Shown here one piece after another: positions 26,426 to 48,688 of a DNA stretch of 64,000 nucleotides. The stretch spans positions 11,085-75,084 of the forward strand of contig JADZEH010000004.1 in NCBI GenBank assembly GCA_020850635.1, written 5' to 3'. How positions within the stretch are numbered: the first letter of the stretch is position 1; the number at the start of each line of letters is the position of its first letter. The notes below the pieces were generated by a model. It made no database searches. It saw only the letters and a list, made by a program, of their open reading frames with translations, and had not been told where the DNA came from. The DNA comes from Candidatus Doudnabacteria bacterium (GTDB taxonomy: Bacteria > Patescibacteriota > Doudnabacteria > UBA920). A program made the position numbers and the translations under genes.

Positions 26426-26454
26426 ATTATAGCAAAAATTACGACAATTGTCAA
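26426..26454 (-). promoter_or_regulatory. Consensus sigma70 promoter TTGACA-N17-TATAAT (minus strand), extended -10 TGCTATAAT
   Basis: Reverse complement of 26426-26454 is TTGACAattgtcgtaatttttgcTATAAT, about 160 nt upstream of the HTH gene. Flanking context TCATTGACAA...TTTTTGCTATA is shared with the 38037-38065 promoter. Confidence 0.55.
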
Positions 26455-26566
26455 TGAAAAATGGCGCTATCAAGCCTTATTTTTGTAAATCTCTCTTAAA
26501 AAATTCAAAACCCGCTCATTAAATTTGAACGGGCTTCCAAAATTGCTATCCGATATTTTCTATTCG

Positions 26567-28527: not shown

Positions 28528-29616
28528 TTAGTATTGCGCTGAAGTAATGTAAGTTAAAATATTTTGATACGATCCTGACTCCTGCAAGCTCCCAATCTCA
28601 AGTTTGTAGACCAAAGTTGTAGCTTCACTTGTTGCTGGTCCTGTATTACACGCAACCTCAGATGGCGTTGTTGTGATAGCCGCATAAGTATTATTCGCCG
28701 AGAAACGATTAGTACTACCAGTGCATAGAACACTGTCTGTTGTATGATATCCAAACGCGCCAGTAGTTACCGCAACTGGCCAAACATCAGGGCTAGCGTT
28801 GGTACCAGAAACACTATCGATATCAGCACCAGCAGATGTCCTCAATTCGCCATCATGCTGAAGAGTGGTTGTATACCCACTCACACCGTTTGTGCTCACT
28901 GTAACCGTATGAGCCGCTACAGCTGGGGTACTCACAACCAAGCTCCCATAAGTAATGGCGTTACTTGTTGTAGTTATAGTTGTAGTTTCGCCAGCCACAC
29001 TTGTACTCGATGCAACTCCTGAAAACGTTATAGCCAAACTTGGGCTACTTGTACTCGCACTAGCTTCAGAAGAAAAACCTGTCTCAGTGTCTGCTCCATG
29101 ACGAGCTTTGACTTTAATTTTGTAAGTCGTACTTGGAGTTAACCCAACAATTCGTTCACCACTACCGCTTCCCCAGTTAGTAAAAGTTTGCCAGGCTTCC
29201 GTCGTGGAAACAGTATCATCTGTTTGAACATAATTGGTAGTTACAAAGTTATCAGATGAAATCGCAATAGCATACTCCGTATCACTACTGTTACCACCAA
29301 TGGCAATGACAAAATCAAGTGAGTTATACAAAGTCCCACCTGTGTTGGTTAAGGTTGGCGCTCCAGGAACTCCCGGATAGGCCGGCCAAATAAACCCGAG
29401 TAAGGAACGAAAGTTAGTTGAACTTGAACCACTATCACTTACTGCCCCAATAGAATCCACCGAGCGATAGTTAGCCGAAGCACTGTTTTCGCCACCTCCG
29501 TCAATGGTCGCATCTTCAATACGATAGTTGCTTCCAGTTAAAGTTTCAGCCAAAACTGGAGTCGCCAAAACTGAGAAGACTAAAGATAAAATTGTAATTT
29601 TTTGTATCGAGTTCAT
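28528..29616 (-). CDS. Secreted protein with FN3-like middle and a conserved about 150-aa C-terminal domain (WxL-like candidate; paralog B1)
   Basis: Signal peptide MNSIQKITILSLVFSVLATPVLA; the C-terminus ...GSYQNILTYITSAQY matches that of 30943-32034. The start is moved to the second ATG (29616) because an extended -10 (TGGTATAAT, 29634-29642) lies 3 nt from the track's first ATG (29631). Confidence 0.55.
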   Translation of the reverse strand: MNSIQKITILSLVFSVLATPVLAETLTGSNYRIEDATIDGGGENSASANYRSVDSIGAVSDSGSSSTNFRSLLGFIWPAYPGVPGAPTLTNTGGTLYNSLDFVIAIGGNSSDTEYAIAISSDNFVTTNYVQTDDTVSTTEAWQTFTNWGSGSGERIVGLTPSTTYKIKVKARHGADTETGFSSEASASTSSPSLAITFSGVASSTSVAGETTTITTTSNAITYGSLVVSTPAVAAHTVTVSTNGVSGYTTTLQHDGELRTSAGADIDSVSGTNASPDVWPVAVTTGAFGYHTTDSVLCTGSTNRFSANNTYAAITTTPSEVACNTGPATSEATTLVYKLEIGSLQESGSYQNILTYITSAQY

Positions 29617-29633
29617 ATGGTTTTTATACATTC

Positions 29634-29642
29634 ATTATACCA
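29634..29642 (-). promoter_or_regulatory. Extended -10 element TGGTATAAT(GAAT) upstream of B1
   Basis: Reverse complement of 29634-29642 is TGGTATAAT. The same TGnTATAATGAAT occurs upstream of the CAP gene (39625-39633). Confidence 0.4.
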
Positions 29643-29656
29643 TATAGCCTAAGTTA

Positions 29657-29728
29657 GCAGGTGGTTGATGTTGTACTAAAACCAGTCGCTCCGCTCCGAT
29701 GGTTTTCTTAACAACATCAACCACCTGC
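29657..29728. repeat. 72-nt perfect-stem hairpin element (copy 1): 18-bp outer stem GCAGGTGGTTGATGTTGT/ACAACATCAACCACCTGC enclosing a conserved core with inner stem AAAACCA/TGGTTTT and loop GTCGCTCCGCTCCGA
   Basis: A 49-nt core is identical to the reverse complement of 39701-39749. The outer stems differ between copies yet each pairs perfectly. Confidence 0.6.
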
Positions 29729-29843
29729 ACCAATAGGCATTCAAAGGTAAAGACGATTCCCTTGTTGTTAAGAAAAGTATTTGGTCCCCTCTACTTTTCG
29801 TACAATAAGGGAATCGGATTTATCAAAAAAACCGCCCGGTTTC

Positions 29844-30920
29844 TTAGAGCGGTTCTTTGTCTTTCTTAGTTCGTCTTTTTTTAGGAGATTTGTTATTAGT
29901 CGCCTGATTGATAATGTAACGGTTGTATCGCTTAATACTGAAACGTCCAACAATAAAGGCGACAATTAATCCTGAAATTACAACAGTTATCAATTGCCAT
30001 GGAATGACGTAGAACGTGTAGCTTTTTGAGTCCGACTTTAATTCTTTGGTTCCAAAGACAACACTTAGCGATGCTTTGTATTTTCCAAAAGCAAAATTGT
30101 GCCATTGATACTTTACTTGATCCCAAAATCCAGGACCCGCTGGGCTTGGAATTTCCGGATCGGCTCCCTGTTGCAAGTCTCCCCAGCTACTAGCCCAAAC
30201 AGTTTCAAAACGCCTAATGCTTTTTGGCAAAATACTTCCATCAACAGGGTTGGCTGGCAGAATCTTTGTCGTACGTCCGAACATGTTCGTAATCAAAACA
30301 TCACCAACTGGTCTTAAATGATCTTCACCAACATTTTGAAAACGATAGTAAAAATAAACCGGGAGAGCTGTAAAAAAACGCTTTTTGTCTTTAGTCGCAA
30401 ATTCTAAGATATTAGCGTTTTGAACAAAATCACCATTTACTCGAAGTAACAACAGGGTTCCTAACTTTGAACTAATGCCCACCTGACCACCCTGGTCAGC
30501 ATTGGGAGGGGTTGTTTCTAAAAACATCGCAGCGAAATGACCACCAGGGTCAGCGTTCTCCGGCACATTAACTTTAATAGGAATTTCCAAAGTCTCACCA
30601 GGGCCAATAGTAATGACTTCCGCAACTTCAACCCAAACCGCTAAATCTTCTTTACGATTTGTAAACCGAGGACTACCACTTTCATCCTGAGATTCGAAAT
30701 TTTGTAAATTAGTATAAAAAGTTCGAGATTGTTTTTCCTCATTACTAATTTTCAAAATTTCAGTTACCGACTCTCCAGGATTAGCGTTAATTTCTATTCT
30801 GGGGGTTGTGGTTATGGCTTGTACGGGTCGGACAAAAGCCCCAAAAATTAAAACGAAAACCGCTCCGACAAGTAACGCGGCGCGGCTATATCTTAATTTG
30901 AAAATTTCTGGAAAATTCAT
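29844..30920 (-). CDS. CscA/DUF916-like secreted protein with C-terminal TM anchor and Lys-rich tail (paralog 3)
   Basis: Motifs RFQNVGEDHLRPVGDVLITNMFG, ILPKSIRRFETVW, GKYKASL, FYVIPWQ, TM, then KRYNRYIINQATNNKSPKKRRTKKDKEPL. Confidence 0.6.
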   Translation of the reverse strand: MNFPEIFKLRYSRAALLVGAVFVLIFGAFVRPVQAITTTPRIEINANPGESVTEILKISNEEKQSRTFYTNLQNFESQDESGSPRFTNRKEDLAVWVEVAEVITIGPGETLEIPIKVNVPENADPGGHFAAMFLETTPPNADQGGQVGISSKLGTLLLLRVNGDFVQNANILEFATKDKKRFFTALPVYFYYRFQNVGEDHLRPVGDVLITNMFGRTTKILPANPVDGSILPKSIRRFETVWASSWGDLQQGADPEIPSPAGPGFWDQVKYQWHNFAFGKYKASLSVVFGTKELKSDSKSYTFYVIPWQLITVVISGLIVAFIVGRFSIKRYNRYIINQATNNKSPKKRRTKKDKEPL

Positions 30921-30942
30921 TTAGTAAACAATCCCAAACAAT

Positions 30943-32034
30943 TTAAAATGTACCTGTGGCGATGTATGTGATGTTCGTACTATAACTACCAGCCTCTGTG
31001 TTTCCCGCGATGTTGGCGAGATAAAAAGCACTTACAGTTTCAGTATTAGTTGGTGTTGTTCGTGAAATAATCGTCGTGGTCGTGCCAGCAACAAAGGCCC
31101 AATCTCGGTTTCCTGGTGTAGAGTTGTGATCATAACCAGTTGCCACGGTAGAAGAGCCATTCGTGGAAATACCTAAACCAAACTCTTCTGCAGACTGAGT
31201 ACCATCAGCATCGTTAGTAATAGCGGCAACATCAATAGTATTACCACCACTGGTTAAAGTGGCTCCATTGTAACTTAGGACATACCCACTAGCGGCGTTA
31301 GTAGCAACAGCTAAAGTATGAGCGGCGGCAGAGTCTGTACCAGAACCATTAGTATCACCAGTAGCAAATCGGGCTGCTGTTGAACTAAGTGAGCCAAACC
31401 CGATTGTTGTATCAGAAACGCTAAAGGTAATTGTAGGGTCAACTGTAGCTGTAACGTTAACCTGATCTTCTGTAATAATATCTACAGCAATTGTCCCTGT
31501 GTCACCAAAGCTACCACTAATGGCAATCGTATCGTCATCATCAATTGCGCCATTACTAATTTGGTTTGTGCCAGTTGCCTGACTTACAGCATTTGTACCA
31601 ATACGGAAACGGACGCAACGCCCAGCCGTGACTGTACCAGTACCTGAAGTTAGAGTTACAGTTGTTGCGCTGTCCCCATCTGCTCCCCAAGTCGCACCAG
31701 AGGGAGAAGCGGCCAAAGTTCTTTCTGTAAATGATGCTGTACTACAGTTACTTGAGTCACCTTCAGCAAAGTCAATATCAGTATGAACTATATTGGTAAC
31801 GTTTGTGAAGTCAGCTGAAAAAGTTAAAATAATAGTTTGACCCGCGGTTAATCCGGTAGGTGTGACAAACTTGATTTCATGATTAGCTGCCTCGCTCGCC
31901 TTTAAACGAGACATGACGTCAGATAAACTTGTCACTGAAGCGGCTTGTGCAACAGGTACTCCCTGAAAAACAACGCTAGCAACCAATGCCACCATCGCAA
32001 TCTTACTATATATACGCTTCGTTTTTTGTTTCAT
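30943..32034 (-). CDS. Secreted protein sharing the C-terminal domain of 28528-29616 (WxL-like candidate; paralog B2)
   Basis: Signal peptide ...VPVAQA; the C-terminal block AHTLAVATNAASGY...AGSYSTNITYIATGTF aligns with AHTVTVSTNGVSGY...SGSYQNILTYITSAQY of B1. Confidence 0.55.
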   Translation of the reverse strand: MKQKTKRIYSKIAMVALVASVVFQGVPVAQAASVTSLSDVMSRLKASEAANHEIKFVTPTGLTAGQTIILTFSADFTNVTNIVHTDIDFAEGDSSNCSTASFTERTLAASPSGATWGADGDSATTVTLTSGTGTVTAGRCVRFRIGTNAVSQATGTNQISNGAIDDDDTIAISGSFGDTGTIAVDIITEDQVNVTATVDPTITFSVSDTTIGFGSLSSTAARFATGDTNGSGTDSAAAHTLAVATNAASGYVLSYNGATLTSGGNTIDVAAITNDADGTQSAEEFGLGISTNGSSTVATGYDHNSTPGNRDWAFVAGTTTTIISRTTPTNTETVSAFYLANIAGNTEAGSYSTNITYIATGTF

Positions 32035-32060
32035 TATTTTATGAAGTAATATTTAGGTTA

Positions 32061-32090
32061 ATTATAGCAGATTTTTTGACTTTTGTCTAA
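32061..32090 (-). promoter_or_regulatory. Promoter for the B2-A3 pair: TTAGACA-N17/18-TGCTATAAT (minus strand)
   Basis: Reverse complement reads TTAGACAaaagtcaaaaaatctgcTATAAT, 27 nt upstream of the 32034 start. Confidence 0.45.
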
Positions 32091-32105
32091 CCTGTGTGGA
32101 TAAAA

Positions 32106-35100
32106 TTACTCCACCAAGCTAACTTCAGTTCCAGATTCTACTGAATCTTGAACCTCGGGTTCTTCTTGGGTTTCCTCTGGTTCAGTAACAGGCATTTGTT
32201 CATCGGGAGATTCTTCGCTTACAACGCCGGCAACAGACCCTTCGTCAATTACTGGTTCCGGGTCCTCTGATAATGAATCCGATTCTGACGACTGCTGTCC
32301 AGCAATAACTAACTTGATAGTGCTAGTATTACCATTTGACACAGTCAGTTTTGCATCCTGTCCTGCAAACGCATGCCAGTTAAATTCAACTGCTTCGTTT
32401 TGATCGTCGCTAATCTTAATGGTAAAGCCAGATGAGTCTTCATCAACCACCGTGTAGCGGAAACTATTATCCAATGCGGCTTCACCACGAGGACTAATCG
32501 TGACGATTGGCTGATACTCATACGGCTTAGTAAAGTTTACTCTCACCTCTGTTTCCCCAGAAAGAATTTTTACCTGACCTACTGAGTCTGAGGTTAAATA
32601 CAAATGACCCTTGATGACAATCGGTGTATCAATGTTTCCACCTAAATTGCCTTGTAAACTATTTACTGAAACTTGTAAGCTCTCAATTCTGTCTTGTTGT
32701 TCGTGAATCGCATTAACTAAGATCGGAGTGAAACCAACATAGTTCACAGATTTTAATCCAGTCTTTGGATCAATCTTAACTAGCTCAGGTGAAATCACTT
32801 CAACCTCTTGTGCCAGAAAACCAATTCTCAAAGCATCATCAGTTTGAGACTTCCAACGGAAATTAACCCCCCTAAAATTAAGAACTTTCTCTAAGGCACT
32901 TTCAATTGTTGCTACATCCTCTTTAAGACGTTGGTCAGAGGTACACACCAAAGCGGTACTCGTTGGATCAATATCGCATGACCCATCAGAATCAGTAAAA
33001 CGAGCCACCACACCTGCCGCACCCAACACCACATGAAGCGGATAACTAGGAGTGGTTATGCCGATACCGACATTTCCCGCGCTAAATATTGCAGCATAAT
33101 TATCTGTACCACCTGAAGCACTTACAGACAAACCCACATTGACTGCAGTAGTTCCCGTATGTGTATTAGCGACTTGAAGACCATATGTGGTTTGGCTCGC
33201 GCCATTATTGGAACCCGAGGTAGCAATATTTAAGACCGTTTGATTAGTTAAAGCCTTGGAGGTACCAGAAATTTGTAAGTCAACTAGCTTGCCAGAAGTT
33301 AAGTTGGATGACGCAGCATACAATCCAGTACCAGTGGTTAAAGAGTTAACATTTAGTGCTAAGGCAGAAGCGGTTGTAACTTGAGTCGTATTTGCAGAAG
33401 TAACCGACATTGTTCCTGAACTTTGAATATATCCCTTGACCGCAGCAATTGCACCAGAGGAGTTGACTTGGAATAAGTCACCACTTCCAACGGTCAGCAA
33501 CGCGGTAGGTGAAGCATCTCCAATCCCGACATTGCCACCCATAAACTGAGCAGCGTAATTATTTGTCGCACCGGTTTGAGCGTTTACAGTTAGACCAAAA
33601 CTATTAGTTGCTGTCGAAACAGCACCGGCTGAAATCAAAATACCATGGGTATTCGTAATAGTTGCGTTCGTACTTTTGACTGGAGCACCTGTTATTCCTA
33701 AAGTCGCCGCGTTGGTTAATGTGGAAGCTCCGTTAAATGCATAAGTCGGTGCATTGATTAATACTGCGCGTTGTGTCGCTAAGCTACCAGTACTAAAAGT
33801 TACAGTTCTGTTGAGTGCAAAATTTATATCCGCGGCTTCGATTGTAGAATCTAAGTTAACATGTGCTGGCCCTGTAACGGCGAGTAAATTTGGGGAGCCA
33901 GAACCAGATGGATCGGGGGCCATAATTAATCCGCCAGTTTCGTTGACAGTAGCCAAAGCAGAACCGCCTGAATTTTGCCACTCCTGCAAATTTGCCGACT
34001 GACCACCACTTGAAGCCGATACAGCAATATTATATTTGTCAGACAAATACTTTTCTACGGATTCTTTGTCGGCAATACTTAACGCTGAGCTATAGACTAT
34101 AATTTCCGCGATATCTCCCTCCCAATATTGTGATACTCCTAAGTAGTGATAAGTATCCCCAATCCAATTAAAAGAACTATTTGCAGTTCCCACGATTGTT
34201 ATAATACTATAAGTATTTGCCGGTTTTTGAATATTAAGAACTGAGGTATAAGTACCATTTGTATAACCCTGACCACTAGCAATGTCGCCGTTTGTACCTC
34301 CTAATGAATTAATCAAATCAGTACCAGTTTCACCAAAATAATCAAAACCGGTGCTCTCTCCAACTGGTGACTCCCCAGCAGGCGAACTCCCATCAACATG
34401 TCTGATTACCATTATCAGAGTCCTAGAATTAGTCACTACTGAATCCATAGCCAAAAAATCATCGGTACCATCGAAGCGAACCACAGGCTTGCCGTTAGTT
34501 CCACTAGCAATATAAAGAGGCTGACTTGCTCCAGTTCCTTGAGTAGCATCATTACCCGACCCGCTTGAATTAGTCCAGCTTGCAACAGGGTCATTATTAT
34601 TTAAAGACAAACTATCAGCCTTTAACCACACCACTAAACCACTGATATCATCAGGTTCAATTCCACTACCTAAAGGCGAACCTTTAACAATTATGCCTTT
34701 AGTATTCGCTGTGCCTGTTACAACTTTCAGCCTTGCATCAGGTATGGTAGTGCCTATACCCACGCTTCCATTTTCAAAGATGGCAGCATAGTTATTAGTT
34801 CCACCTGAAGCAGAAGCATATAAACCGACATTAGTTGAGTCTGTCCCTGTATGAGTATTAGTAATATATCCACTGTAAGTTGTTTGGGTGGAAGTAGCAT
34901 TGGCTCCAGATAAACTAAGAGATAAAAGTTTTTGTGTGTTGCTTGCAGCAGCGGTTGTGTTGGCTGATAAAGCTAAACCTGTCCCACCTGCTAAAGTGTC
35001 CCAGGCCCAATTCTGCTGATAATTGGTATTATCAATAGAATTTGTTGCTGTGGCGGCAGTCAACCCTGACAACGAGCCACCGCCTACACCGTCACAAGCC

Positions 35101-37670
35101 TGCCATTCGAAATCGCCAGTAGTTGATTCGTAAGTTAAACATTCTTCATCAACAGAAGAGTCCACTGCTTTTAAATCTGCTTCAGTAACTTTCTCATCAA
35201 CAATCGCGGTGGCTCCAGTACTATCAATCACAATATCTCCACTCATTGCTACGGGATTATAGTTTGTACCATCCGCCACTAGAATAAATCCAGAGGTATT
35301 TGTGCCCATAAATAAATCATCGCCCGAAATAGTAAGATCGCCATCTAGTTGGACGTTACCAACACTGGTGATAAGAACGCGTTCCGTACCAGCCATACTA
35401 ATAGATAAATCATCTGATCCACCAAGCACAGCAATCTGCACTTTCTCAACACCAGCCTTATAAATGTAATACCCAGCTTGTGAAGCAGCGTCTCCATCAA
35501 CCTGAATTAATGCATGCCCAGCAGCATTAGTGTACGACATACCTACTGCCGCGGTTCCCACAACGCTCAGACCTGCAAAAGTTGGCAATGAAGTCGTTGT
35601 TAAATTTTGTCCTGTATTAAAAGTTAATTGCGAATCGCTAATCGAGTCGGCAGCAACAGAAATGCTAACAGCAGCGGTTTCTGATCCTGAACCACTTACA
35701 GAAATCTGGCTGTCGCCAGCAATAGTCGCAACATAGTTGCCAGCAGTATCAGTACCCAGCGCTACACTATTGGATTGAATCGTAGTTGCACCAGTATTAT
35801 CGATTGCAATATCACCAGACACCGACACAAACACAGGAACGCCACTGACATTACCAATAAGCAACTGTCCGCTCGTTGGCGCAGCCGTTACCTGCACTGC
35901 CGAAGTTCCATTCCCGTAAACCAAACCATTTAAAGAGAGAGACGACGTTCCTGTTCCACCATTCGAAACAGCAAGTACACCAGTCACATCGGTAGCTAAG
36001 TTAGTTGTACCACCACCAATAGCTCCCCAAGTTGCACCGTTATAGACATTAAATGCATCTGTTGTTGAGTTGTATACTAAAAGACCTGTCGCTGGGCTAC
36101 TAATCGCATCGCGTTCGACAGTCGTCATCCGTGGTGCTAAAAACCCACGTGTGGTTGAATTTGCTTGTAAGATTGCAGAAGCATCCAAAGTGCCTTCACC
36201 AATGAGCAGTTCACTTGAATCAAAACTACTACCTGAGGATACCGAGCTTGAACCAGCAGCACCACGTGCTCCCGTTTCACCAGTTGCCCCCTGTGGACCT
36301 TGTTCGCCCGTGTCCCCTTTGTCACCTTCTAAAAAGTCGAAAAGACCTAAGGCAATAAATCGATTCATCACTCTTGTTACTGCAGTCTCAATAGCACTTT
36401 CACCAAAGTTTACTGTTGTTGTCGGGGTCGGTGGTGTTATTGGTGTTGAGACAATAGGAACTTCTTCTGGCACGTAGACTATCGTAGGTGTTGGCTCTGG
36501 CTCAGAGCAAACAACTAACCAACACAAAACTTTCTCCCACCAAGGAATTTCGGTACTCTCTCCCAAAACACGACCACTATATTGGCCAGTCTCCGCGTTT
36601 GCTATTTTTGTTTGTGCTGAAAAATCATCAACTGTTAATTGAGGAGAAAATCTGTCTTGTAAATATTTACCATTAGTAGAAAAATTTTCAAGCAAGGGAC
36701 TCTGTAGCATGGCAACAGTTACATTGTCTGCTTTTTTAGCCACGATCTCAGCCAGCATCAAAGTCTTGTTAAACAATGTACTTGCACTGACTGCTACACT
36801 ACTATCAACACTCGCAACTATAAACTGACCTTCATTAAATATTTGATTAACAGAAACAGTAACTCTATCTTGCGAAGATACAAGATCATTTACAACAAAA
36901 TTTGCTAAAACAATATCAGCGTTATCGAGTATGTTATTACTAAATTTTTTAACATCTTCTATTGTCACCTTTGGCACACTCACTGTTGGAACAATATTAT
37001 CAAAAGCACGATGATTCTCTAAACTTTGACTAGCAAGGGTTTGCCCTGTAGTTATAAACTGGACAGACCCTGAGAACTGAGCGAGGACCTTGCCATCACT
37101 AACCCAAGTTGCGACTACCGAATCAACAATTCCAGCAACACGATCAAACGCTCCACTAATACTATTTGGTAAATTGCCAATATCGACCAATACCTGCTCA
37201 TACGACAGCTTGATCAAACTTCCTAAAGTTGAACTATTACTCCCTACTTCGGAAACTAATTCTTGTGAATATTGTTTGGAGTATTTCTTTGTGTTCCGGA
37301 TACCGATTGAAGCATGATCAGCAACGAACTGTTCTGCCTTTGATGTTATATCCTGTGCATCATAATAAAGATTTGCAAATTTTCGCTCATGCCACTCACT
37401 AAATTTAGTGAAGGTTACATAGCCTTCATAAATTGATTCTAGAATAAACTTGCTAGTTTTCGCATCGTAATAATTTAGAAATGCCGAGGTGTCTCCAATT
37501 ATGCCATAGGCTTGATTTTGCCAAGAAGAAACTATTGTCCCTGAATTATTAATTGAGGAATACTCTATATTGGATGGTTGGCTGGCGTATACTCTGTTTG
37601 AACTTAGTGACGCACATAATATAACAACAACCAAGAGGCTATAGACAAGTTTATTTATAACTTTCATCAT
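32106..37670 (-). CDS. Giant (1854 aa) secreted phage-tail-fibre-like protein: collagen-like GXY run, tail-fibre repeats, LamG-like domain, C-terminal S74-type intramolecular chaperone domain, acidic tail
   Basis: Signal peptide ...SSNRVYA; GDKGDTGEQGPQGATGETGARGAAG (collagen triplets); repeats GSVGIGTTIPDARLKVV / GNVGIGDASPTALLTVG / GNVGIGITTPSYPLHVV. LamG-like region LVVWLKADSL...YWEGDIAEIIVYSSAL; endosialidase-chaperone motif SDQRLKEDV...RIGFLAQEVEVISPELV. Confidence 0.85.
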   Translation of the reverse strand: MMKVINKLVYSLLVVVILCASLSSNRVYASQPSNIEYSSINNSGTIVSSWQNQAYGIIGDTSAFLNYYDAKTSKFILESIYEGYVTFTKFSEWHERKFANLYYDAQDITSKAEQFVADHASIGIRNTKKYSKQYSQELVSEVGSNSSTLGSLIKLSYEQVLVDIGNLPNSISGAFDRVAGIVDSVVATWVSDGKVLAQFSGSVQFITTGQTLASQSLENHRAFDNIVPTVSVPKVTIEDVKKFSNNILDNADIVLANFVVNDLVSSQDRVTVSVNQIFNEGQFIVASVDSSVAVSASTLFNKTLMLAEIVAKKADNVTVAMLQSPLLENFSTNGKYLQDRFSPQLTVDDFSAQTKIANAETGQYSGRVLGESTEIPWWEKVLCWLVVCSEPEPTPTIVYVPEEVPIVSTPITPPTPTTTVNFGESAIETAVTRVMNRFIALGLFDFLEGDKGDTGEQGPQGATGETGARGAAGSSSVSSGSSFDSSELLIGEGTLDASAILQANSTTRGFLAPRMTTVERDAISSPATGLLVYNSTTDAFNVYNGATWGAIGGGTTNLATDVTGVLAVSNGGTGTSSLSLNGLVYGNGTSAVQVTAAPTSGQLLIGNVSGVPVFVSVSGDIAIDNTGATTIQSNSVALGTDTAGNYVATIAGDSQISVSGSGSETAAVSISVAADSISDSQLTFNTGQNLTTTSLPTFAGLSVVGTAAVGMSYTNAAGHALIQVDGDAASQAGYYIYKAGVEKVQIAVLGGSDDLSISMAGTERVLITSVGNVQLDGDLTISGDDLFMGTNTSGFILVADGTNYNPVAMSGDIVIDSTGATAIVDEKVTEADLKAVDSSVDEECLTYESTTGDFEWQACDGVGGGSLSGLTAATATNSIDNTNYQQNWAWDTLAGGTGLALSANTTAAASNTQKLLSLSLSGANATSTQTTYSGYITNTHTGTDSTNVGLYASASGGTNNYAAIFENGSVGIGTTIPDARLKVVTGTANTKGIIVKGSPLGSGIEPDDISGLVVWLKADSLSLNNNDPVASWTNSSGSGNDATQGTGASQPLYIASGTNGKPVVRFDGTDDFLAMDSVVTNSRTLIMVIRHVDGSSPAGESPVGESTGFDYFGETGTDLINSLGGTNGDIASGQGYTNGTYTSVLNIQKPANTYSIITIVGTANSSFNWIGDTYHYLGVSQYWEGDIAEIIVYSSALSIADKESVEKYLSDKYNIAVSASSGGQSANLQEWQNSGGSALATVNETGGLIMAPDPSGSGSPNLLAVTGPAHVNLDSTIEAADINFALNRTVTFSTGSLATQRAVLINAPTYAFNGASTLTNAATLGITGAPVKSTNATITNTHGILISAGAVSTATNSFGLTVNAQTGATNNYAAQFMGGNVGIGDASPTALLTVGSGDLFQVNSSGAIAAVKGYIQSSGTMSVTSANTTQVTTASALALNVNSLTTGTGLYAASSNLTSGKLVDLQISGTSKALTNQTVLNIATSGSNNGASQTTYGLQVANTHTGTTAVNVGLSVSASGGTDNYAAIFSAGNVGIGITTPSYPLHVVLGAAGVVARFTDSDGSCDIDPTSTALVCTSDQRLKEDVATIESALEKVLNFRGVNFRWKSQTDDALRIGFLAQEVEVISPELVKIDPKTGLKSVNYVGFTPILVNAIHEQQDRIESLQVSVNSLQGNLGGNIDTPIVIKGHLYLTSDSVGQVKILSGETEVRVNFTKPYEYQPIVTISPRGEAALDNSFRYTVVDEDSSGFTIKISDDQNEAVEFNWHAFAGQDAKLTVSNGNTSTIKLVIAGQQSSESDSLSEDPEPVIDEGSVAGVVSEESPDEQMPVTEPEETQEEPEVQDSVESGTEVSLVE

Positions 37671-37918
37671 GCCAGCCTCCTTTCAGATTTTTCTAAAGAA
37701 GCTAGAATGCGACGATGTTTTTGTTCTTGAGACTTTACATAAGACAAAACGGCCTCACGTGTTGTGAGCCAGTCTCGAGATATTTTAATCGCTTTCAGTT
37801 TGCCTTTACGAGCAAGTAAGCTCAGATATTCCTGTGAGTACGGTGTATTTGTCGCCGCTTCACCAATGGAAATCAAAGAACCAGATGCCAAAAAACGGCT
37901 CTTTTCCTGTTCGGACAT
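37667..37918 (-). CDS. Small excisionase-family HTH DNA-binding protein, translationally coupled (ATGA overlap) to the giant gene
   Basis: ISIGEAATNTPYSQEYLSLLARKGKLKAIKISRDWLTTREAV matches the same HTH family as 26060-26266. Its stop overlaps the start of 32106-37670 by 4 nt. Confidence 0.7.
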   Translation of the reverse strand: MSEQEKSRFLASGSLISIGEAATNTPYSQEYLSLLARKGKLKAIKISRDWLTTREAVLSYVKSQEQKHRRILASLEKSERRLA

Positions 37919-38036
37919 TGTCTCTGCTTATGTTTTGTTTTTGTTTCTATCTACGAACTATCGAGCAACCGCGCATTCCTAAACTAATTTTGGCTTAAGC
38001 ATGCACTATCGATCATCCGATACTTTTCTAAATTCA

Positions 38037-38065
38037 GTATAGCAAAAAAAACGTGTTTTGTCAAT
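38037..38065 (-). promoter_or_regulatory. Near-consensus sigma70 promoter TTGACA-N17-TATACT (minus strand), paralogous to 26426-26454
   Basis: Reverse complement is TTGACAaaacacgttttttttgcTATACT, with shared flanks TCATTGACAA and TTTTTTGCTATA. About 120 nt upstream of HTH2. Confidence 0.55.
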
Positions 38066-38122
38066 GATTTTCAATGTACTAAACAAAAAACCTCCTAAAC
38101 AGGAGGTCTTAAAATTTACATT

Positions 38123-39469
38123 TTATCCAAAATACCACAACAGCGTCGCGAAGATTGCCACAAAGGAACCGTTCGCTACCAAATTTACATGTTGGATATG
38201 TCGATGAACCGCAATCGCGACAATTAATGAGACTAAGACGAGAGACACAAATACTAAATAAAATTTACTTTCGAATTGTTTGACGTCTAAAGTTCTTCCA
38301 AGAACAGATATTGTCGCTCCGGCAACTTCTGGTGCAGTACTATAATTTCCAACCAAGCTACTAGAAAAACTTGCTAAACGAACTGAACCAAGCTTACCAT
38401 CAAGTCCATACGCTTCAATCATCATAGAGTTGTTTTCTGAAGCAAGCTCAGATAACGGTATAGTCCCCTTCCAACTATAATCACTCACTGGATCAAGCAT
38501 GATCGCTTTTTGACCATACTGCACAATAACGCGACTTGCGTTGGGTGCCCAAGCTAATATCTCAACATTCGATCCATACACTGAAACTAATGTTGGAATT
38601 TCTGTTCCAGCAATCAGCGCAGAATTTTCTTGCTCGGGTGTGGCCACCGGAACTACTTCAGCAGGCCCAGCCTGAACCTCTGCTTGTGCCACTGGCTGAG
38701 CAGTTGGCTGAGCAGCGGGAGCTTGAGCTACTGTAGTTGGCGCTGGTTGTGGTGGAGCTTCTACTGCTGGTTCAACTTGAGTAGGAGTAGCTAAGGTTTG
38801 AATTGGTTGGTCAGAGCTAGCGCCAAACATCTGGACCACAAAAATACTGCTATGACCCTCAAATTGACCCTGAGCAATACCGATCCCAATTTCTTCAAAA
38901 TTTTCATTTAAAATATTAGCTCGATGTCCAGGACTGTTCATCCAAGCATCTTCCACGTTTTCAGCTTGTACAAAATCAACTGCCAAGTTTTCACCGGCAA
39001 TCACATACTTATAACCAGCGGCTTTGATGAAATCCCAAGGAGTTCGCCCATCTGGCGAATTATGAGCAAAATACTGATTAGCCAGCATGTCGTCTGCCTT
39101 AGCCTGTGCCGCTGCTCTTAATTGTGAGTTTTGGGTTACAGTCCCAATTCCATATTCAATACGGGATTCATTGGTTAAACTGATAATGTTTTCAGGAGTA
39201 ATCGCTGAGGAAAATGCTGGAGATACTGGTCCAAGACTTAAAAGTACAAGACCACCAATCTTTACCGTAACCAGCAACAACGAAAACAAAGCCACCGCCC
39301 GATGCCCAAGCATGTGAGGATGGTAGTTATTTCGATGATGCGGCACAAAATGGTCTTTAATATGACGACCAAATTGCTTGAACGATGGGAACATCTCCCC
39401 ATACGGTTCATATTGCACACTTCCAATAAAAGGAATTGCGATACTCATTTTTGTTTCTCGAACTTTCAC
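38123..39469 (-). CDS. CAP/SCP/PR-1-like domain protein with Pro/Ala/Gln-rich linker and C-terminal TM anchor
   Basis: CAP motifs YKYVIAGENLAVDF...WMNSPGHRANIL...IGIGI; linker PQPAPTTVAQAPAAQPTAQPVAQA; hydrophobic C-terminus. Confidence 0.75.
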   Translation of the reverse strand: MKVRETKMSIAIPFIGSVQYEPYGEMFPSFKQFGRHIKDHFVPHHRNNYHPHMLGHRAVALFSLLLVTVKIGGLVLLSLGPVSPAFSSAITPENIISLTNESRIEYGIGTVTQNSQLRAAAQAKADDMLANQYFAHNSPDGRTPWDFIKAAGYKYVIAGENLAVDFVQAENVEDAWMNSPGHRANILNENFEEIGIGIAQGQFEGHSSIFVVQMFGASSDQPIQTLATPTQVEPAVEAPPQPAPTTVAQAPAAQPTAQPVAQAEVQAGPAEVVPVATPEQENSALIAGTEIPTLVSVYGSNVEILAWAPNASRVIVQYGQKAIMLDPVSDYSWKGTIPLSELASENNSMMIEAYGLDGKLGSVRLASFSSSLVGNYSTAPEVAGATISVLGRTLDVKQFESKFYLVFVSLVLVSLIVAIAVHRHIQHVNLVANGSFVAIFATLLWYFG

Positions 39470-39624
39470 GTTTGCAGGATTTTATGCAAACGCTATTTGC
39501 TGGCAAGAAAAAAACTAGAGACAAGCTCTTCATTTCTTTCAACCAACTATATTTACTTGTATTTTTGTTTCACTTGTATCGATGAACTAATTTTGGCTCA
39601 TCAATATTCGTTAAATCTAAATTC

Positions 39625-39653
39625 ATTATAGCATAACTAGCGAAAAAAATCAA
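39625..39653 (-). promoter_or_regulatory. Promoter for CAP gene: TTGATT-N17-TGCTATAAT(GAAT) (minus strand)
   Basis: Reverse complement is TTGATTtttttcgctagttatgcTATAATgaat, about 150 nt upstream of the 39469 start and about 40 nt downstream of hairpin copy 2. Confidence 0.45.
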
Positions 39654-39690
39654 GACACACTTTATAAGTCTAGATTGTCTCTGAATAGAC

Positions 39691-39762
39691 AGAACAGGAA
39701 GATGTTGTTAAGAAAACCATCGGAGCGGAGCGACTGGTTTTAGTACAACGTCTTCCTGTTCT
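39691..39762. repeat. 72-nt hairpin element (copy 2, inverted relative to copy 1): outer stem AGAACAGGAAGATGTTGT/ACAACGTCTTCCTGTTCT around the same core
   Basis: Core 39701-39749 is the reverse complement of 29670-29718 (49/49 nt). The outer stem has a single T:G position. Confidence 0.6.
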
Positions 39763-39770
39763 AGAATATT

Positions 39771-39804
39771 CGAACAAAACAAAACTCCCCACCGAAGTGG
39801 GGAG
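39771..39804 (-). terminator. Rho-independent terminator of the RRM-protein gene (stem CTCCCCAC/GTGGGGAG, tetraloop, U-run)
   Basis: Minus-strand RNA reads CUCCCCACUUCGGUGGGGAG followed by UUUUGUUUUGUU, 30 nt past the stop codon. Confidence 0.6.
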
Positions 39805-39833
39805 CTAGTTTGATTTAAAACGAAAGTTCTAAA

Positions 39834-40145
39834 TTAGAAGTTATCGCGGCCACCCTGTGGGCGATCTGCCATTGGGCGAGCTTCGTTAACTAACAACTTA
39901 CGGCCACCGTATTCGGTACCGTTCAATTGTTCTACTGCGGCGTCTGCTTCAGCATCGTTATCGAATTCTACGAATCCGAAACCGCGGCTGCGGCCAGTCA
40001 TTTTGTCAGTGATGATGGTAGCTGTAGATACAGTACCAGATGCTGCAAACAACTGCTTAAGGTCGTCGCTCGTGGTTGCCCATGGAAGGCCACCAACGAA
40101 AAGTTTCTTTGCCATTTTACTAAGGCTTTCTCGTAAGCGCACCAT
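39834..40145 (-). CDS. RRM-type RNA-binding protein (glycine-rich RBP-like)
   Basis: RNP-2 LFVGGL and RNP-1 RGFGFVEF; 103 aa with RG/G-rich tail. Confidence 0.8.
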   Translation of the reverse strand: MVRLRESLSKMAKKLFVGGLPWATTSDDLKQLFAASGTVSTATIITDKMTGRSRGFGFVEFDNDAEADAAVEQLNGTEYGGRKLLVNEARPMADRPQGGRDNF

Positions 40146-42974: not shown

Positions 42975-45900
42975 CTAGGTTTGGCACCAGGCAAACGCGT
43001 TCCGGAACATACGCAGCCAGGGGCCGTTTTCATGAGATCGCCAATCGTATGGTGACCAAGGCGACTGCCATGGCAAGAAGCATCGCTCCGGGTGCGGCAT
43101 CATGGCCAAGTGTCGACCATCAGCCGAACACAGAGCAGCGATACCTTGAGGACTCCCATTCGGATTGAACGGATAGTCGCAAGTGATGTCGCCGTCATGA
43201 TCAAGATACCGAATCGGAGCCAGGTAGCCCTGGATGATCCCCTGTAGAACCTCTGGCTGAGGAACATACAAGCGACCTTCACCATGCGCAACCCACACGC
43301 CCAACCGAGAACCCTCCATCCCTTGAAGGAAGATAGACGGACTAGGCAGAATTTCAACAGTAGAAAACCGCGACTCAAACCGTCCAGACTTGTTCGCAAT
43401 GAAACGCGGCTGTGAAGAGTCGGGAAGGTCCGCACCAGGGACCCGTCCGAGCAAAGCCATGAACTGGCAGCCGTTGCAGACACCGAGAGAAAACGTGTCG
43501 AGACGGGCGTAGAAACGATCGAACTGATCACGGACGTGGTCGTTGAATTTGACCATGCCCGCCCAGCCCTTACCCGCATCAAGCACATCACCAAACGAAA
43601 ACCCTCCCGGAAAAACGAGGCCAGAAAAATCTTCGAGACTGTAACCCTCGAGCAAATCGCTCATGGTCAAGTCGTAGACCTCGAAACCTACCATGTAAAG
43701 CACGGCAACCATTTCACGGTCACCGTTAGTTCCCGGAGCGCGCAACACCGCAACCTTCGGCCTTGGCCGAAGAGACACAATAACTGCCGAACGATCTGGA
43801 TCGAAAGTCAAACGTCGCGGCGGGTCACTGAGGAGGCTACGAACCGCTTCCCGTTCAGCTGCGACACACTCAGGGTTAGCCTGTAAAGCGTCAAGCTGGA
43901 AGCTCGTCTCTTCCCAGACCGCACGAAGCGCGGTCATGGTATTGTTGAGCACCGGGATGCTGTTGTGATAGATGGTCACCTCGTTGGTATCAACCGTCGT
44001 CGCCACGTAGTGAACCTTGAGACCGGCCTGCCGGAACCAATAGCTCACTGTGTTTGGGTCAGGTGTCTCGATCAGGAGTCCAACTTCTTCGTTAAACCAA
44101 GCTTCAATCGGATCATGAGCCGTTTTGAAATGGCCTATGAATCCAAAATTGCTGGCGAATGACATCTCAAGGAGAGCCGTGATCAAACCGCCATCACTGC
44201 GATCATGGACCGCCGTGATGAGACCTTCCCCGATCATGTCCTGCACACACTGGAACAGGAACTTCAGATCCTTCGCGCTTGTGACATCGGGAGCCTCATC
44301 GCCAAGCTGACCCAAACTCTGGGCCAGCGCCGAACCACCAAGACGACAAGCATCACCCAACTCAACGAGCAAAACCCCGTTGAGAGCACCCTTGAACTCG
44401 GGAGTGACTTTGGCCGTTACGTCGGCCATTGTCGCGTAACCCGCGATCACGAGTGTCCCTGGAGCCTTGCTCTTTTCCGACGTGCCATCAGGAGCGGTCA
44501 TTTTCGCGGCCATCGATGAACTGTCCTTACCACCGTCACCGGCGATACCGAGAGTCATCATAATGTCGCTCATGGCTTCCGCAGCCTGGTAAAGTCGAAC
44601 ACCCTCACCAGGTTCCTTCGCGGCCCACATCCAGTTCACCGAGCACTTGATGTGTTCGATATCAGTGATGCAAGCACCCGCCATGTTGAGAAGCATCTCT
44701 GCCACAGACATGCGAGCCATGGCCGCAGGATTGATGAGCCCAATAGTGGGACGTTCGCCGAGACTCATCGCCGTACCGACCGTGTCGAAATGGCTCTGAG
44801 CCATCACGGCATAGTCAGAAAGTGGCAAATGATTCGGTCCGACGCACTGTTGTTGGGCCACAAGCCCACCCACACTACGATCGAGTTTCGTCGTCAAGAA
44901 CCGTTTCGAACCAACCGCAGGTTGGCGAAGCACGCCATCGAGCGCCGATTCGAAAGTTAGATCAGACGGCAGCACAAGCGGAGTGAGATCGAGTGGAATG
45001 TCCTCGAACTCGAAGGTCTTGCGCGGAGGATTCCCGAACAGTTCCTTGAGTGGAAGATTGACCGGCGTCGAGTTGTCAGCACTGTCATGAACAATGAACA
45101 ACCCATCTCCGGTAACCTCGCCAACACAAACACACGGAGCACCTTCCCGTCGGGAAATTTCCTCAAGCAGGCCAAAGCTCTCGGAGTGAATCAGAAACGC
45201 GTTGCGCTCCTGAGATTCGTTACCAAGATACTCCAGAACCGAAAGAGAACTGTCTCCTAAAGGGATGGCGCGGAGCTGGATCTTCGCCCCCGCAGGGTCG
45301 ACTATTTCGGGAAGCGCGTTCGCGTCCCCTCCAGCACCGAGATCGTGAGCGGAAATGATCGGGTTGCGATCCAGAAGTTCGCAGCAAGCTCGAATCACTC
45401 GATTCACGCGGTTCTCCATTTCGGGATTACCACGTTGCACCGAATTGAAATCGAGCTCGACCGTATTCTCGCCATGAGTCATGGAACTTGCAGCTCCACC
45501 ACCTACACCGATCCGGTACGCAGGTCCACCAAGCTGTACGACAAGCATTTCAGCTTCGGGCGAACCCTTGCTGATGTGTTCGTCGACCATCTGGCCAAGA
45601 CCACACGTGTAAAGAATCGGTTTACGATAACTACGGAGGTCCTTGTCACCAACGCGAAGCTCGTACGTTCGCAGGGATCCGATGACCCCCGCCTCGCCGA
45701 AACAGTTCGCGTAATGGGAAGCTCCGTTGCTCCCCTCGATGAGAACATCGAGCGGAGTTGGTAGATTGGGCGTATCACGATAGCCATGATCAATCTCGCC
45801 GGGAATGGAATACCCAGGGATATTGAGCTGCCCAACGCAGTACATCAGACCACCAACACCCACGAGTCCACCGCGACCTACCACCTGGTTGTCGCGAATC

Positions 45901-47232: not shown

Positions 47233-48688
<1,456 letters not shown>

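Follow-up and report, generated by a model that had tools for sequence, protein, structure and literature searches.

One narrow clade of Candidatus Saccharibacteria alone carries a small, previously unannotated family of non-coding palindromic repeats, about 72–100 bp in unit size, which are all intergenic, occur in either orientation beside unrelated genes, and are represented three times in the window (the whole stretch of DNA analyzed, 64,000 nt of contig JADZEH010000004.1). We favor, at about an even chance of being right, a reading in which these repeats form a REP/BIME-like family of dispersed palindromes with the opposite layout, such that the invariant apical module is probably the site where a factor binds the extruded hairpin. 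Judging from the comparison of related genomes, the family is under selection.

The initial annotation had described two 72-nt hairpins with an identical 49-nt core, and sequence search and folding bear this out, coordinates included; its account of the gene context of both copies also matches the list of open reading frames and our scans. Copy 1 is flanked by ORFs 28528–29631 (−) and 29844–30920 (−), and copy 2 by the RRM gene 39834–40145 (−) and the CAP gene 38123–39469 (−). The two type-A copies, a third member (variant B), and the adjoining signals are as follows.

29634–29642, − strand: extended −10 TGGTATAAT of gene 28528–29631, beginning 14 nt from the foot of copy 1
29647–29738, + strand: copy 1 with its outermost 5-bp helix, GCCTA/TAGGC, past a 5 × 5 internal loop (from folds)
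29657–29728, + strand: copy 1 (type A), 72 nt long, folding into a hairpin whose 18-bp outer stem is perfect; covariance model score 88.8 bits
29670–29718, + strand: invariant core of copy 1, with boxes TTGTAC-T-AAAA and TTTTCTTAACAA
29748–29822, − strand: variant B; covariance model score 66.3 bits, E 5e-11; DNA fold z −5.2
29824–29853, − strand: hairpin resembling a terminator (ACCGC...GCGGT, then T7) where gene 29844–30920 ends, upstream of variant B; identified by eye and not called by the consensus terminator scanner
39625–39653, − strand: CAP gene promoter (TTGATT, 17 nt, TG-n-TATAAT), downstream of copy 2
39682–39771, − strand: copy 2 with its outermost 5-bp helix, GAATA/TATTC (from folds)
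39691–39762, − strand: copy 2 (type A), likewise a hairpin of 72 nt; its core strand is the − strand, and 17 of 18 outer-stem pairs are formed
39701–39749, − strand: invariant core of copy 2, found by the 49-mer match
39783–39806, − strand: the RRM gene's intrinsic terminator, which transcription reaches before copy 2

The 49-mer GTTGTACTAAAACCAGTCGCTCCGCTCCGATGGTTTTCTTAACAACATC matches both core sites without a mismatch, and no further site at up to 3 mismatches was found in the window (0 in 100 shuffles); sub-patterns of the core lead to the same two sites and nothing extra, and a repeat finder stretches the identity of the copies to 52 nt at 98%. The core strand, which lies on + in copy 1, is denoted strand A. 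Both copies fold into an 18-bp outer stem, an asymmetric internal loop, an inner stem of 7(+3) bp, and a terminal loop (in the core of copy 1, AAAACCA/TGGTTTT around GTCGCTCCGCTCCGA), with RNA folding z-scores of −7.8 to −8.9, not equaled by any of 200 shuffles, and DNA folding z-scores of −7.9 and −9.5. The outer stems had been thought to be perfect in both copies, which is true of copy 1 (18/18); copy 2 has a single C.A mismatch on the core strand, equivalent to G.U on the + strand, and its orthologue L001 has a perfect pair at this position. The outermost helix of copy 1 is weakly retained, with 4 bp, in the orthologue L006.

The earlier count of two copies holds for matches to the core but overlooked a diverged third member. 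Variant B lies 20 nt from copy 1 and is inverted relative to it, with the core strand on −; it has the boxes TTGTAC-N-AAAA and TTTTCTTAACAA in common with type A and combines them with an apical stem-loop (AAAAGTA GAGGGGACCAAA TACTTTT) and arms (GATTCCCTT/AAGGGAATC) that are peculiar to it, and its orthologue is found at L006 7780–7868. All members of the family share an architecture that consists of a self-complementary, locus-specific outer stem of 13–20 bp, often with an extra helix of 4–7 bp, an asymmetric internal loop with 3–4 nt on one side and 4–5 nt on the other, an inner stem that begins with AAAA, and a loop of 12–15 nt. Of the 10 type-A copies compared, 9 have the same central 45–46 nt, and the tenth differs there at two positions. 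The arms, described as completely different between the copies, are indeed locus-specific but, next to the core, weakly alike across the family (GGTTTGT-like; AGAACAG-AAG), with a mean similarity score of 2.67 vs 1.97 ± 0.24 in shuffles.

The closest genome found is the uncultured Candidatus Saccharibacteria MAG CAYOVR01 (a species representative), which accounts for all 6 matches in a search with the loop 21-mer. It holds orthologues of copy 1 (72/72 identical), copy 2 (71/72), and variant B along with four more type-A copies and a further variant; the count of at least 8 elements at seven loci is a lower bound, given that the assembly is fragmented. One more genome (L007) emerged from a search of metagenomes with the box pattern, which otherwise gave chance matches only, and L035 is an additional genome that carries the element. 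A covariance model run over 218 kb of DNA returned only the 12 known copies, and an architecture scan added nothing except variant C (L004 7074–7143), in which the stem differs directly at the internal loop. The element is absent from more distant relatives, where the copy-1 site either lacks the spacer or contains a terminator and a promoter only. We sought a clean empty site and found none, so that past mobility is suggested by the dispersed distribution only. In the L034 contig (1.3× coverage), a 90-nt deletion takes out half of copy 2, which may mean that this copy is dispensable or that the contig is an assembly artefact. In a sister lineage (L023/L026), the same RRM–CAP spacer is filled by a RAYT-like Y1_Tnp gene flanked by inverted hairpins; those of L023 (CCAAAGGGGGTCTTTGG) are unrelated in sequence to the type-A and variant elements.

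Both the core and the arms evolve slower than the adjacent spacer. Between the window and the MAG, differences number 0/133 in the cores and 4/78 in the arms vs 33/174 in the adjacent spacers (Fisher p = 2e-9 and 0.004, respectively), and between L003 and L007, the core differs at 2/45 positions next to a heavily diverged spacer. The proposal that the hairpin is maintained by compensatory change is well supported: in the outer helix, 14 of 20 pairs have changed on both sides, a score that no shuffle out of 500 reaches, and 90.6% of the cells pair compared to 33–53% in slid controls. Orthologues differ by compensated changes as well, namely, A-T to C-G and G-C to T-A, two positions apart, from L005 to L035, G-C to A-T from L003 to L007, and T-A to C-G in the outermost helix of copy 2 relative to L001 (GAACAG/CTGTTC). 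Most mismatches in the arms read A.C on the core strand and hence G.U on the other strand (about 8 vs 1; p = 0.07 for 7:1), and strand B folds better than strand A in 11 of the 12 copies, which hints at an RNA or an otherwise single-strand-specific form.

Under the favored REP/BIME-like reading, the invariant center would be a sequence-specific recognition module for a putative trans-acting factor that reads the hairpin extruded as single-stranded DNA, a cruciform, or passively transcribed RNA, and the arms would need only to pair, to extrude or stabilize the hairpin. Their complementarity could stem from one-step intrastrand template switching, whereby one arm is copied from the other, and/or from selection on the stem. 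Template switching creates and maintains perfect hairpin stems and expands inverted repeats, and arm-to-arm copying in a single step yields both matched arm substitutions and mirrored duplications (PMC8794818, PMC13100816). Purifying selection on orthologous copies is not predicted for a purely selfish repeat and would imply that these repeats have a host function. The low copy number, with a lower bound of about 8, compared to classical REP families counts against the REP/BIME-like reading. No homologue of a Y1/HUH transposase was detected in the window or L001–L007.

The main rival explanation holds that the repeat is a structured RNA element, either a small RNA gene or a part of the neighboring transcripts that would block or insulate against read-through, be cut by RNase III or otherwise processed, stabilize the 3′ end, or bind a protein as a hairpin; its invariant internal and apical loops would form the functional RNA surface. 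Such an RNA would fit the strong covariation of the outer helix, the compensated changes between orthologues, and the G.U bias and greater stability of strand B; the L002 copy, preceded by the mltG stop codon and followed by a canonical terminator, lies in a 3′ UTR, terminator-like T-runs follow the L004 and L005/L035 copies, and the L003/L007 copy, located between two tRNA genes, may belong to a tRNA leader, in which case strand B would be sense. We nevertheless consider this explanation unlikely. Template switching can yield covariation without selection at the RNA level (PMC8794818), T-runs follow the repeat at only 2–3 of the 7 loci, and each of the three copies in the window occupies the gap between one terminator and the following promoter. 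No copy has a dedicated promoter: a TGnTATAAT-type extended −10 (at least 5/6 matches to TATAAT) was not found within 220 nt upstream of any copy in either direction. The mixed orientation relative to transcription, as originally reported for the two copies, is confirmed and extends to the other loci, strand A being sense to the flanking transcription for copy 2, variant B, L005, and L002, and strand B for copy 1 only (with the tRNA-leader placement of L003/L007 being possible). The suggested Rfam check gave no match even at E up to 10, where only sub-threshold miRNA-like hairpin matches appeared. A duplex-DNA operator, with the center bound by a transcription factor or nucleoid protein and the extended palindrome a by-product of inverted-repeat expansion by template switching, would work in either orientation and could explain the invariance of the non-palindromic loop; inverted-repeat expansion near promoters is on record (PMC13100816), and copy 1 as well as the L005/L035 copy, the latter between a stop codon and the htrA promoter, are immediately upstream of an extended −10, centered roughly 50–60 nt from it. 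This alternative appears improbable, however: there is no promoter to regulate in the 3′ region of mltG or in the spacer between the convergent thrS and map genes, where the L004 copy is flanked by A and T tracts, the −10 box lies about 95 nt from copy 2 and about 145 nt from variant B, and a duplex site would require neither the conservation of the orthologue arms nor the three tiers of maintained helices. The initial annotation placed both copies 40–80 nt upstream of promoters of secreted-protein genes. The distance from the hairpin edge to TATAAT is, however, 17 nt in copy 1 (where the extended −10 is just 3–18 nt from the candidate ATGs) and 60 nt in copy 2, and five further loci adjoin housekeeping genes, so that the link to secreted-protein promoters is not general.

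Two other explanations involve DNA rearrangement. If only the 46–49-nt core were mobile and had landed in the loops of palindromes already present, for instance terminators, the arms would derive from the target, in agreement with the abrupt switch from identical core to dissimilar arms, the resemblance of the L004 arms and flanking tracts to a bidirectional terminator, and the status of the RRM–CAP spacer as an insertion hot spot in relatives. Yet the arms co-evolve in place after any insertion, as the compensated changes indicate, and show the weak similarity between loci, beside the core and in subgroups; those of copies 1 and 2 are not terminators, real terminators being adjacent; arm-only palindromes were not found in the window; and variant C departs from the others directly at the internal loop. 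All this leaves core mobility quite improbable. The possibility that the inverted copies are recombination sites that invert or mobilize the 10-kb surface-protein segment at 29.7–39.7 kb, raised in the initial annotation given their position flanking this region, draws on their 49–52 bp identity, inverted arrangement, and spacing of 9,982 bp around large genes for secreted proteins, but seems highly improbable. Gene order and orientation are the same on both sides in the MAG (L001, L006) and L034, and the other copies sit singly beside housekeeping genes. The arms of each copy are complementary to each other, which argues against crossover within the core, as this would swap arms and destroy the pairing. 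Pfam scans of the 13 largest ORFs at 19.9–47.1 kb revealed no recombinase, the sole weak match being an HTH_17 protein; relatives without the element conserve it alongside the giant gene.

Among known systems, MITEs resemble the repeats in being small, non-coding, palindromic, multi-copy, intergenic, and lineage-specific, but they have conserved terminal inverted repeats, whereas here the ends are the variable part, with neither visible direct target-site duplications nor a related autonomous IS found, and purifying selection acts on the orthologous copies, which are not decaying. In integron attC sites, the outer R''/R' boxes (RYYYAAC ... GTTRRRY) are conserved and the center varies. The repeats described here would likewise form a folded single-strand hairpin in which structure is kept and most of the stem sequence is free to vary, and recognition could rely on the asymmetric internal loop or on extrahelical bases, but the polarity is GTTGT ... 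ACAAC and the center is the conserved part; the ORFs scanned (the 13 largest, 19.9–47.1 kb) include no integrase or cassette array. Quasipalindromes kept or enlarged by replication template switching likewise display clusters of matched substitutions in the two arms, together with mirrored duplications such as that in L001 (GAACAG...GAACAG / CTGTTC...CTGTTC); this process explains arm complementarity but not why the 46-nt center with its unpaired loop stays the same from locus to locus and genome to genome. Intrinsic bidirectional terminators share the stable hairpin, the 3′ intergenic location, and, at L004 and L005/L035, the T-run; most copies, however, lack a T-run, three come after a canonical terminator distinct from the repeat, the stem greatly exceeds the usual length, and terminators are not characterized by an invariant loop.

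The closest parallel is with REP, BIME, and REPIN sequences, which also are short extragenic palindromes dispersed in both orientations. BIMEs bring together different unit types side by side, as do copy 1 and variant B in the window and type A and variant C at L004. Unlike REPs, the repeats have a unit of 72–100 nt rather than 20–40 nt and a low copy number, with no RAYT found in the window or L001–L007, and the GTAG or CGTC tag is missing from the hairpin foot (PMC3733652). In REPINs, which RAYT (Y1/HUH) transposases mobilize, the ends are invariant and the spacer is less conserved, such that the conserved center and variable ends, rightly recognized from the start as the reverse of a MITE, are the reverse of a REPIN as well, and the family belongs to neither. 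Vertical inheritance, retention at orthologous sites, and compensatory changes that preserve a long hairpin are shared with REP/BIME/REPIN sequences (PMC3116915) and, by analogy, suggest that the repeats behave functionally like host-retained extragenic palindromes of the REP/BIME type.

The hairpins at 29657-29728 (copy 1) and 39691-39762 (copy 2) belong to a lineage-restricted family of dispersed, intergenic, non-coding palindromes that comprises at least three subtypes (A, B and C). A pattern search of the window confirmed that the two copies share an identical 49-nt core, which occurs exactly twice, at 29670-29718 (+) and 39701-39749 (-); no additional match with up to three mismatches was detected in the window or in shuffled sequence, and shorter sub-patterns of the core recover only these two sites. 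A repeat finder extends the identity between the copies to 52 nt with one mismatch. The initial annotation had counted two copies, which is correct for the exact core in the window, and a diverged third member, variant B, lies at a distance of 20 nt from copy 1. The gene contexts assigned to both copies, between the A3 and B1 genes and between the RRM and CAP genes, were also confirmed.

Family members and their surroundings (L001-L006 are contigs of the Saccharibacteria MAG CAYOVR01, L007 and L035 contigs of other relatives)
29657-29728 (+), copy 1, type A, between a terminator and the next promoter; orthologue in L006, where variant B is also present
29748-29822 (-, opposite to copy 1), variant B, found by relaxed search, boxes TTGTAC-N-AAAA and TTTTCTTAACAA kept; between a terminator and the next promoter
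39691-39762 (-), copy 2, type A, between a terminator and the next promoter; orthologue in L001
L002, additional locus, between the mltG stop codon and a canonical terminator
L003, additional locus, with orthologue L007, between two tRNA genes
L004, additional locus, between the convergent genes thrS and map; A and T tracts lie on either side of the stem
L004 7074-7143, variant C, outer arms ACAAAAACAATATAG/CTATGTTGTTTTTGT, inner stem AAAAGTG/CACTTTT, 15-nt loop
L005, additional locus, with orthologue L035, between a stop codon and the extended -10 box of htrA

Both RNA and DNA folding reproduced the 72-nt hairpin proposed for copies 1 and 2 (z-scores of about -8 for RNA and from -7.9 to -9.5 for DNA). 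An 18-bp outer stem is followed by an asymmetric internal loop (ACT / CTTA on the core strand) and by an apical part in which the inner stem AAAACCA/TGGTTTT and three further predicted pairs precede the loop; the span of 72 nt grows to about 92-100 nt when the outermost helix is counted. The description of the outer stems as individually perfect fails for copy 2, which carries one C.A mismatch on the core strand (G.U on the other strand). TTGTAC-N-AAAACCAGTCGCTCCGCTCCGATGGTTTTCTTAACAAC is common to all ten type-A copies, L007 alone deviating at two positions, and the arms outside the core are locus-specific, pairing over 13-20 bp, with an extra helix of 4-7 bp past a small internal loop at most loci. 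Variant B has its own apical stem-loop, AAAAGTA GAGGGGACCAAA TACTTTT, and arms, GATTCCCTT/AAGGGAATC.

When one genome per species was scanned with the 21-nt loop sequence as query, six hits emerged, every one in the uncultured Candidatus Saccharibacteria MAG CAYOVR01, and a box-pattern scan of metagenomes added one true new copy (L007, the L003 orthologue from another sample) along with four chance hits; the L005 orthologue L035, in a further assembly, was reached through its htrA homologue. A covariance model of the family returned 12 copies from 218 kb of Saccharibacteria DNA, all of them already known. It missed variant C, which was picked up by an architecture scan (inner stem AAAANN/NNTTTT, an interval of 10-23 nt between the 6-nt halves, at least 12 of 16 outer pairs) as the one relative added, 16 nt from the type-A copy within the thrS/map spacer. 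The copy number is three in the 64 kb of the window and, from exact-pattern scans, at least eight in MAG CAYOVR01 (six of type A, variant B and variant C), a fragmented assembly in which several copies lie close to contig ends; because the collection scans require exact patterns, diverged members are under-counted.

The element is absent from the stretches analysed in relatives in which the RRM protein is 88-92% identical or the A3 protein about 70-75% identical. At the copy-1 site of distant relatives, the B1 and A3 genes abut, overlap or have only a terminator and a promoter between them, and their RRM-CAP spacer holds unrelated insertions; the element fills up to about 150 of the 212 nt of an intergenic spacer that relatives lack or keep to a minimum. 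The relatives found by way of RRM, HtrA and A3 homologues were either within the clade and filled or too distant, so that no clean empty site was found among them. BLASTN searches of phage and plasmid collections with the 92-nt element produced chance matches of 24-31 nt or none, and a pattern scan of viral contigs only chance matches in coding DNA. A search of Rfam 15, suggested in the initial annotation, returned nothing relevant: no match at the gathering threshold and, at E <=10, only miRNA- and snoRNA-like hairpins with scores of 14-21 bits, where the thresholds lie at 43-116.

Between the window and the MAG, the three cores differ at 0 of 133 positions and the arms at 4 of 78, compared with 33 of 174 in the adjacent non-element spacer (Fisher test: cores, p = 2e-9; arms, p = 0.004); likewise, L003 and L007 differ at 2 of 45 core positions alongside a heavily diverged spacer. 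Given so few differences relative to the spacer, the whole hairpin is constrained, and its centre very strongly. These comparisons show a central module held by strong purifying selection.

The outer stems are kept by matched change. Across eight type-A copies, both sides have changed in 14 of 20 pairs of the outer helix, and pairing holds in 90.6% of the cells, a share that drops to 33-53% if the partner is shifted by 1-3 columns; the observed covariation score was reached by none of 500 shuffles. Orthologues differ in the same manner: from L005 to L035, A-T became C-G and G-C became T-A two positions apart, with both arms changed, and two mismatches turned into pairs; L003 and L007 are separated by one compensated change of G-C to A-T, and copy 2 and L001 by T-A to C-G in the outermost helix. 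Since they separate orthologues, these compensated changes occurred in place. The proposal that complementarity persists through compensatory change is thus borne out. In L001, a piece of each arm recurs in the outermost helix (GAACAG...GAACAG / CTGTTC...CTGTTC); intrastrand template switching yields mirrored, clustered changes in one step (PMC8794818, PMC13100816). The architecture of these hairpins offers a clean natural case for separating selection on structure from template switching in replication. Mismatches in the arms are mostly A.C on the core strand, that is, G.U on the other strand, which is the better-folding strand in 11 of 12 copies; this asymmetry is no more than suggestive (p = 0.07 for 7:1, with some events shared by descent).

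An invariant centre with locus-specific terminal arms agrees with the layout noted at the outset, the reverse of that of a MITE. The arms of different copies, stated to be completely different, are in fact partly related: weak similarity is detectable between loci, from which we infer that at least some of the arm sequence travelled with the element as it spread. This bears on the possibility that the core was inserted into pre-existing palindromes, which is weakened by the similarity of arms between loci, by the compensated changes in place and by the real terminators that adjoin copies 1 and 2. The other possibility, that the inverted copies are inversion sites flanking the surface-protein region, is not supported. 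Site-specific inversion requires inverted sites, a recombinase and both orientations among relatives, whereas gene order and orientation are identical in every relative that carries the copies, and no recombinase was found among the scanned ORFs. Moreover, a crossover in the core would have exchanged the arms, which are intact and self-complementary in both copies, and most other copies are solitary, beside housekeeping genes.

The core strand is the sense strand for copy 2, variant B, L005 and L002 and the antisense strand for copy 1, so that orientation is mixed, and copies 1 and 2 are opposed relative to transcription, as had been observed. No extended -10 box of the TGnTATAAT type (at least 5/6 to TATAAT) lies within 220 nt upstream of any copy in either direction. 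The hairpins had been placed 40-80 nt upstream of a promoter; the distance from the hairpin edge to the downstream -10 is 60 nt for copy 2 and 17 nt for copy 1. Extended -10 boxes TGGTATAAT are located in the region 29614-29642 and upstream of htrA in L005 and L035. They precede the candidate ATG by 3-18 nt in the window and by 6 nt at htrA, with no Shine-Dalgarno sequence, a spacing that points to leaderless or near-leaderless mRNAs; the 16S 3' end has the canonical CCUCC anti-SD despite these leaderless-like starts. A promoter block, reading TCTAAATTCATTATAGCA... on the plus strand and TGCTATAATGAAT on the minus strand, is repeated at 26417-26457, 38027-38067 and 39616-39656, where it precedes several genes for secreted proteins; it corresponds to the promoter type named in the initial annotation.

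The RRM-CAP spacer, which contains copy 2, is a hot spot for small insertions. In L024 (about 3212-3330), L029 and L030, it holds a quasi-palindromic insertion of about 115 nt, GGCTTAATCAATAAC...CAATTAAGCAG, which is present in some strains, cleanly absent from L025 and folds modestly as DNA (z -2.2); L029 and L030 carry one additional insert, CCTTGCCCCGTTAGAG...CTAATGGGG. In a sister lineage (L023 3560-4420, L026 3450-4310), the spacer encodes, on the opposite strand, a 215-aa Y1_Tnp protein (PF01797) whose best NCBIfam hit, the REP-associated tyrosine transposase, scores 40.5 bits and falls short of the 80-bit cut-off. Inverted CCAAAGGGGGTCTTTGG / CCAAAGACCCCCTTTGG hairpins lie on either side of it, so that this Saccharibacteria lineage has a REPtron-like arrangement; these hairpins are unrelated to those studied here, and the two contigs show only that RAYT-like systems occur in these bacteria and occupy the spacer that holds copy 2 elsewhere. 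In a relative with a 98% identical RRM protein (L034 370-395), a 90-nt deletion with GTC microhomology at its bounds runs from the copy-2 loop (CCAGTC|) to just before TTGATTTTTTT, leaving the left half of the hairpin and removing the other; seen in one contig at 1.3x coverage, it is either a true deletion associated with the hairpin or an artefact of assembly. In another (99%; L033 439-552), copy 2 is replaced, right after the RRM terminator, by an unrelated G+C-rich stretch, ACCAGGCAACCCCGGCTGGAGAAG..., with no Rfam match above noise, which may reflect another insertion, a rearrangement or a chimeric contig. The perfect 94-nt inverted repeat at the start of L023 (1-205) is most likely a fold-back assembly artefact.

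Several other features of this DNA were recorded. A 16S rRNA gene occupies 47233-48695 (-), and the gene downstream of it is purL (42975-47117 (-), a 1380-aa FGAR amidotransferase), not 23S; no LSU rRNA was detected anywhere in the window. The G+C content is 50-55% in the purL region compared with about 40% elsewhere, which suggests an unlinked rRNA gene beside horizontally acquired DNA. A 19-nt inverted repeat, GAAATTTTGTAAATTAGTA / TACTAATTTTCAAAATTTC (30696-30761; 95% complementary, 28-nt spacer), lies within the 5' part of ORF 29844-30920. At 32106-37918, and at 6715-9561 of L023, an 83-aa HTH_17-like ORF overlaps the start of a giant protein with a Peptidase_S74 (endosialidase chaperone) domain, and this gene pair is conserved in relatives without the hairpin element. 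The taxonomic labels of the MAGs are in conflict: the NCBI names of the closest proteins (P0002, P0018, P0123) read 'Candidatus Doudnabacteria bacterium', and the closest species-representative MAG is titled Candidatus Saccharibacteria.

Because the invariant centre includes unpaired loop nucleotides, simple stem stability is insufficient to explain the conservation of the core. Such a centre would be read by a sequence-specific partner, and the long complementary arms suggest that the partner would meet not plain duplex DNA but a hairpin extruded as single-stranded DNA, as a cruciform or as RNA. Given the mixed orientation, the lack of promoters and the varied contexts, an element that acts at the DNA level or is passively transcribed appears to fit better than a dedicated RNA gene or a cis-regulatory leader. 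For these reasons, together with the invariant loop and the long arms, we rank first a REP/BIME-like extragenic palindrome with a predicted factor-binding apical module, to which we give about an even chance, and second a structured RNA, which we regard as unlikely. Somewhat unlikely, too, is a host-maintained hairpin recognition element of a new kind, with three or more subtypes (A, B, C). Here, a putative Saccharibacteria protein would read the apical module (asymmetric internal loop, inner stem starting with AAAA and 15-nt loop) on extruded single-stranded DNA, a cruciform or RNA. Such an element could be a chromosomal counterpart of structure-specific sites of the attC or HUH type, or a previously undescribed structured RNA motif of the candidate phyla radiation.

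Some narrower readings were dropped. A 13-codon micro-ORF on the strand opposite to the core strand (MLLRKPSERSDWF) lies inside the stem and is not kept in variant B. The loop could be read as SD-like (GGAG x2) or anti-SD-like (CUCC x2), readings abandoned because its orientation relative to genes is inconsistent. Read as a K-turn, sarcin-ricin or UAA/GAN motif, the internal loop does not fit in register. No copies of the arms, as possible antisense targets, occur elsewhere in the window.

Saccharibacteria genomes are tiny and tightly packed, and their non-coding DNA is almost uncharacterised; in the library searchable to us, we found no publication linking REP, MITE or RAYT elements to Patescibacteria or Saccharibacteria. 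Neutral spacers diverge by about 19% or more between genomes in which the element stays invariant, and such invariance implies that it has a specific partner and a function that merits a search. If that partner proves to be an enzyme of the HUH or recombinase type, the element could serve as a genetic tool in a phylum that is hard to manipulate.

In behaviour, the closest known systems are the REP, BIME and REPIN sequences, which, like this family, are extragenic, occur in both orientations, are vertically retained and keep their hairpin; in BIMEs, different unit types lie side by side, as they also do here. REP and REPIN sequences number tens to hundreds per genome; for this family, exact-pattern scans give three in 64 kb and at least eight in the fragmented MAG CAYOVR01. 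They are accompanied by a RAYT (Y1_Tnp) gene in the same genome, typically flanked by the repeats; tblastn with the L023 Y1_Tnp protein found no Y1 homologue in the window and L001-L007 (about 100 kb). An attC site has R'' (RYYYAAC) at its 5' side, R' (GTTRRRY) at its 3' side, a variable centre and an integron integrase nearby, whereas the polarity here is reversed (GTTGT 5', ACAAC 3'), the centre is conserved, and no integron integrase was found among the ORFs scanned. Intrinsic terminators consist of a G+C-rich stem directly followed by a U/T tract on the transcribed strand; no T-run follows copy 1, copy 2, variant B, L002 or L003, and with T-runs confined to L004 and L005/L035, just 2-3 loci look like terminators. 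MITEs have conserved terminal inverted repeats in all copies, unlike the locus-specific arms of this family, and inspection by eye of the hairpin boundaries at seven loci revealed no direct target-site duplications of the MITE type. A REP unit is an imperfect palindrome of 20-40 nt, whereas the hairpin here measures 72 nt or longer. REP palindromes carry a conserved GTAG or CGTC tetranucleotide at one end (PMC3733652), whereas the hairpin feet here differ at every locus and none has either; within the family, GTAG occurs only in the apical stem of variant B. In REPINs, two invariant inverted end regions enclose a less conserved central spacer (PMC3116915), a layout that is reversed here, with an invariant centre and variable ends. 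If the apical module is what a host protein recognises, the stem that carries it would be free to vary as long as pairing holds, a mirror image of the REPIN and MITE design. The hairpin is a real, robust and unannotated feature under clear selection, with an inverted design of the extragenic-palindrome kind.
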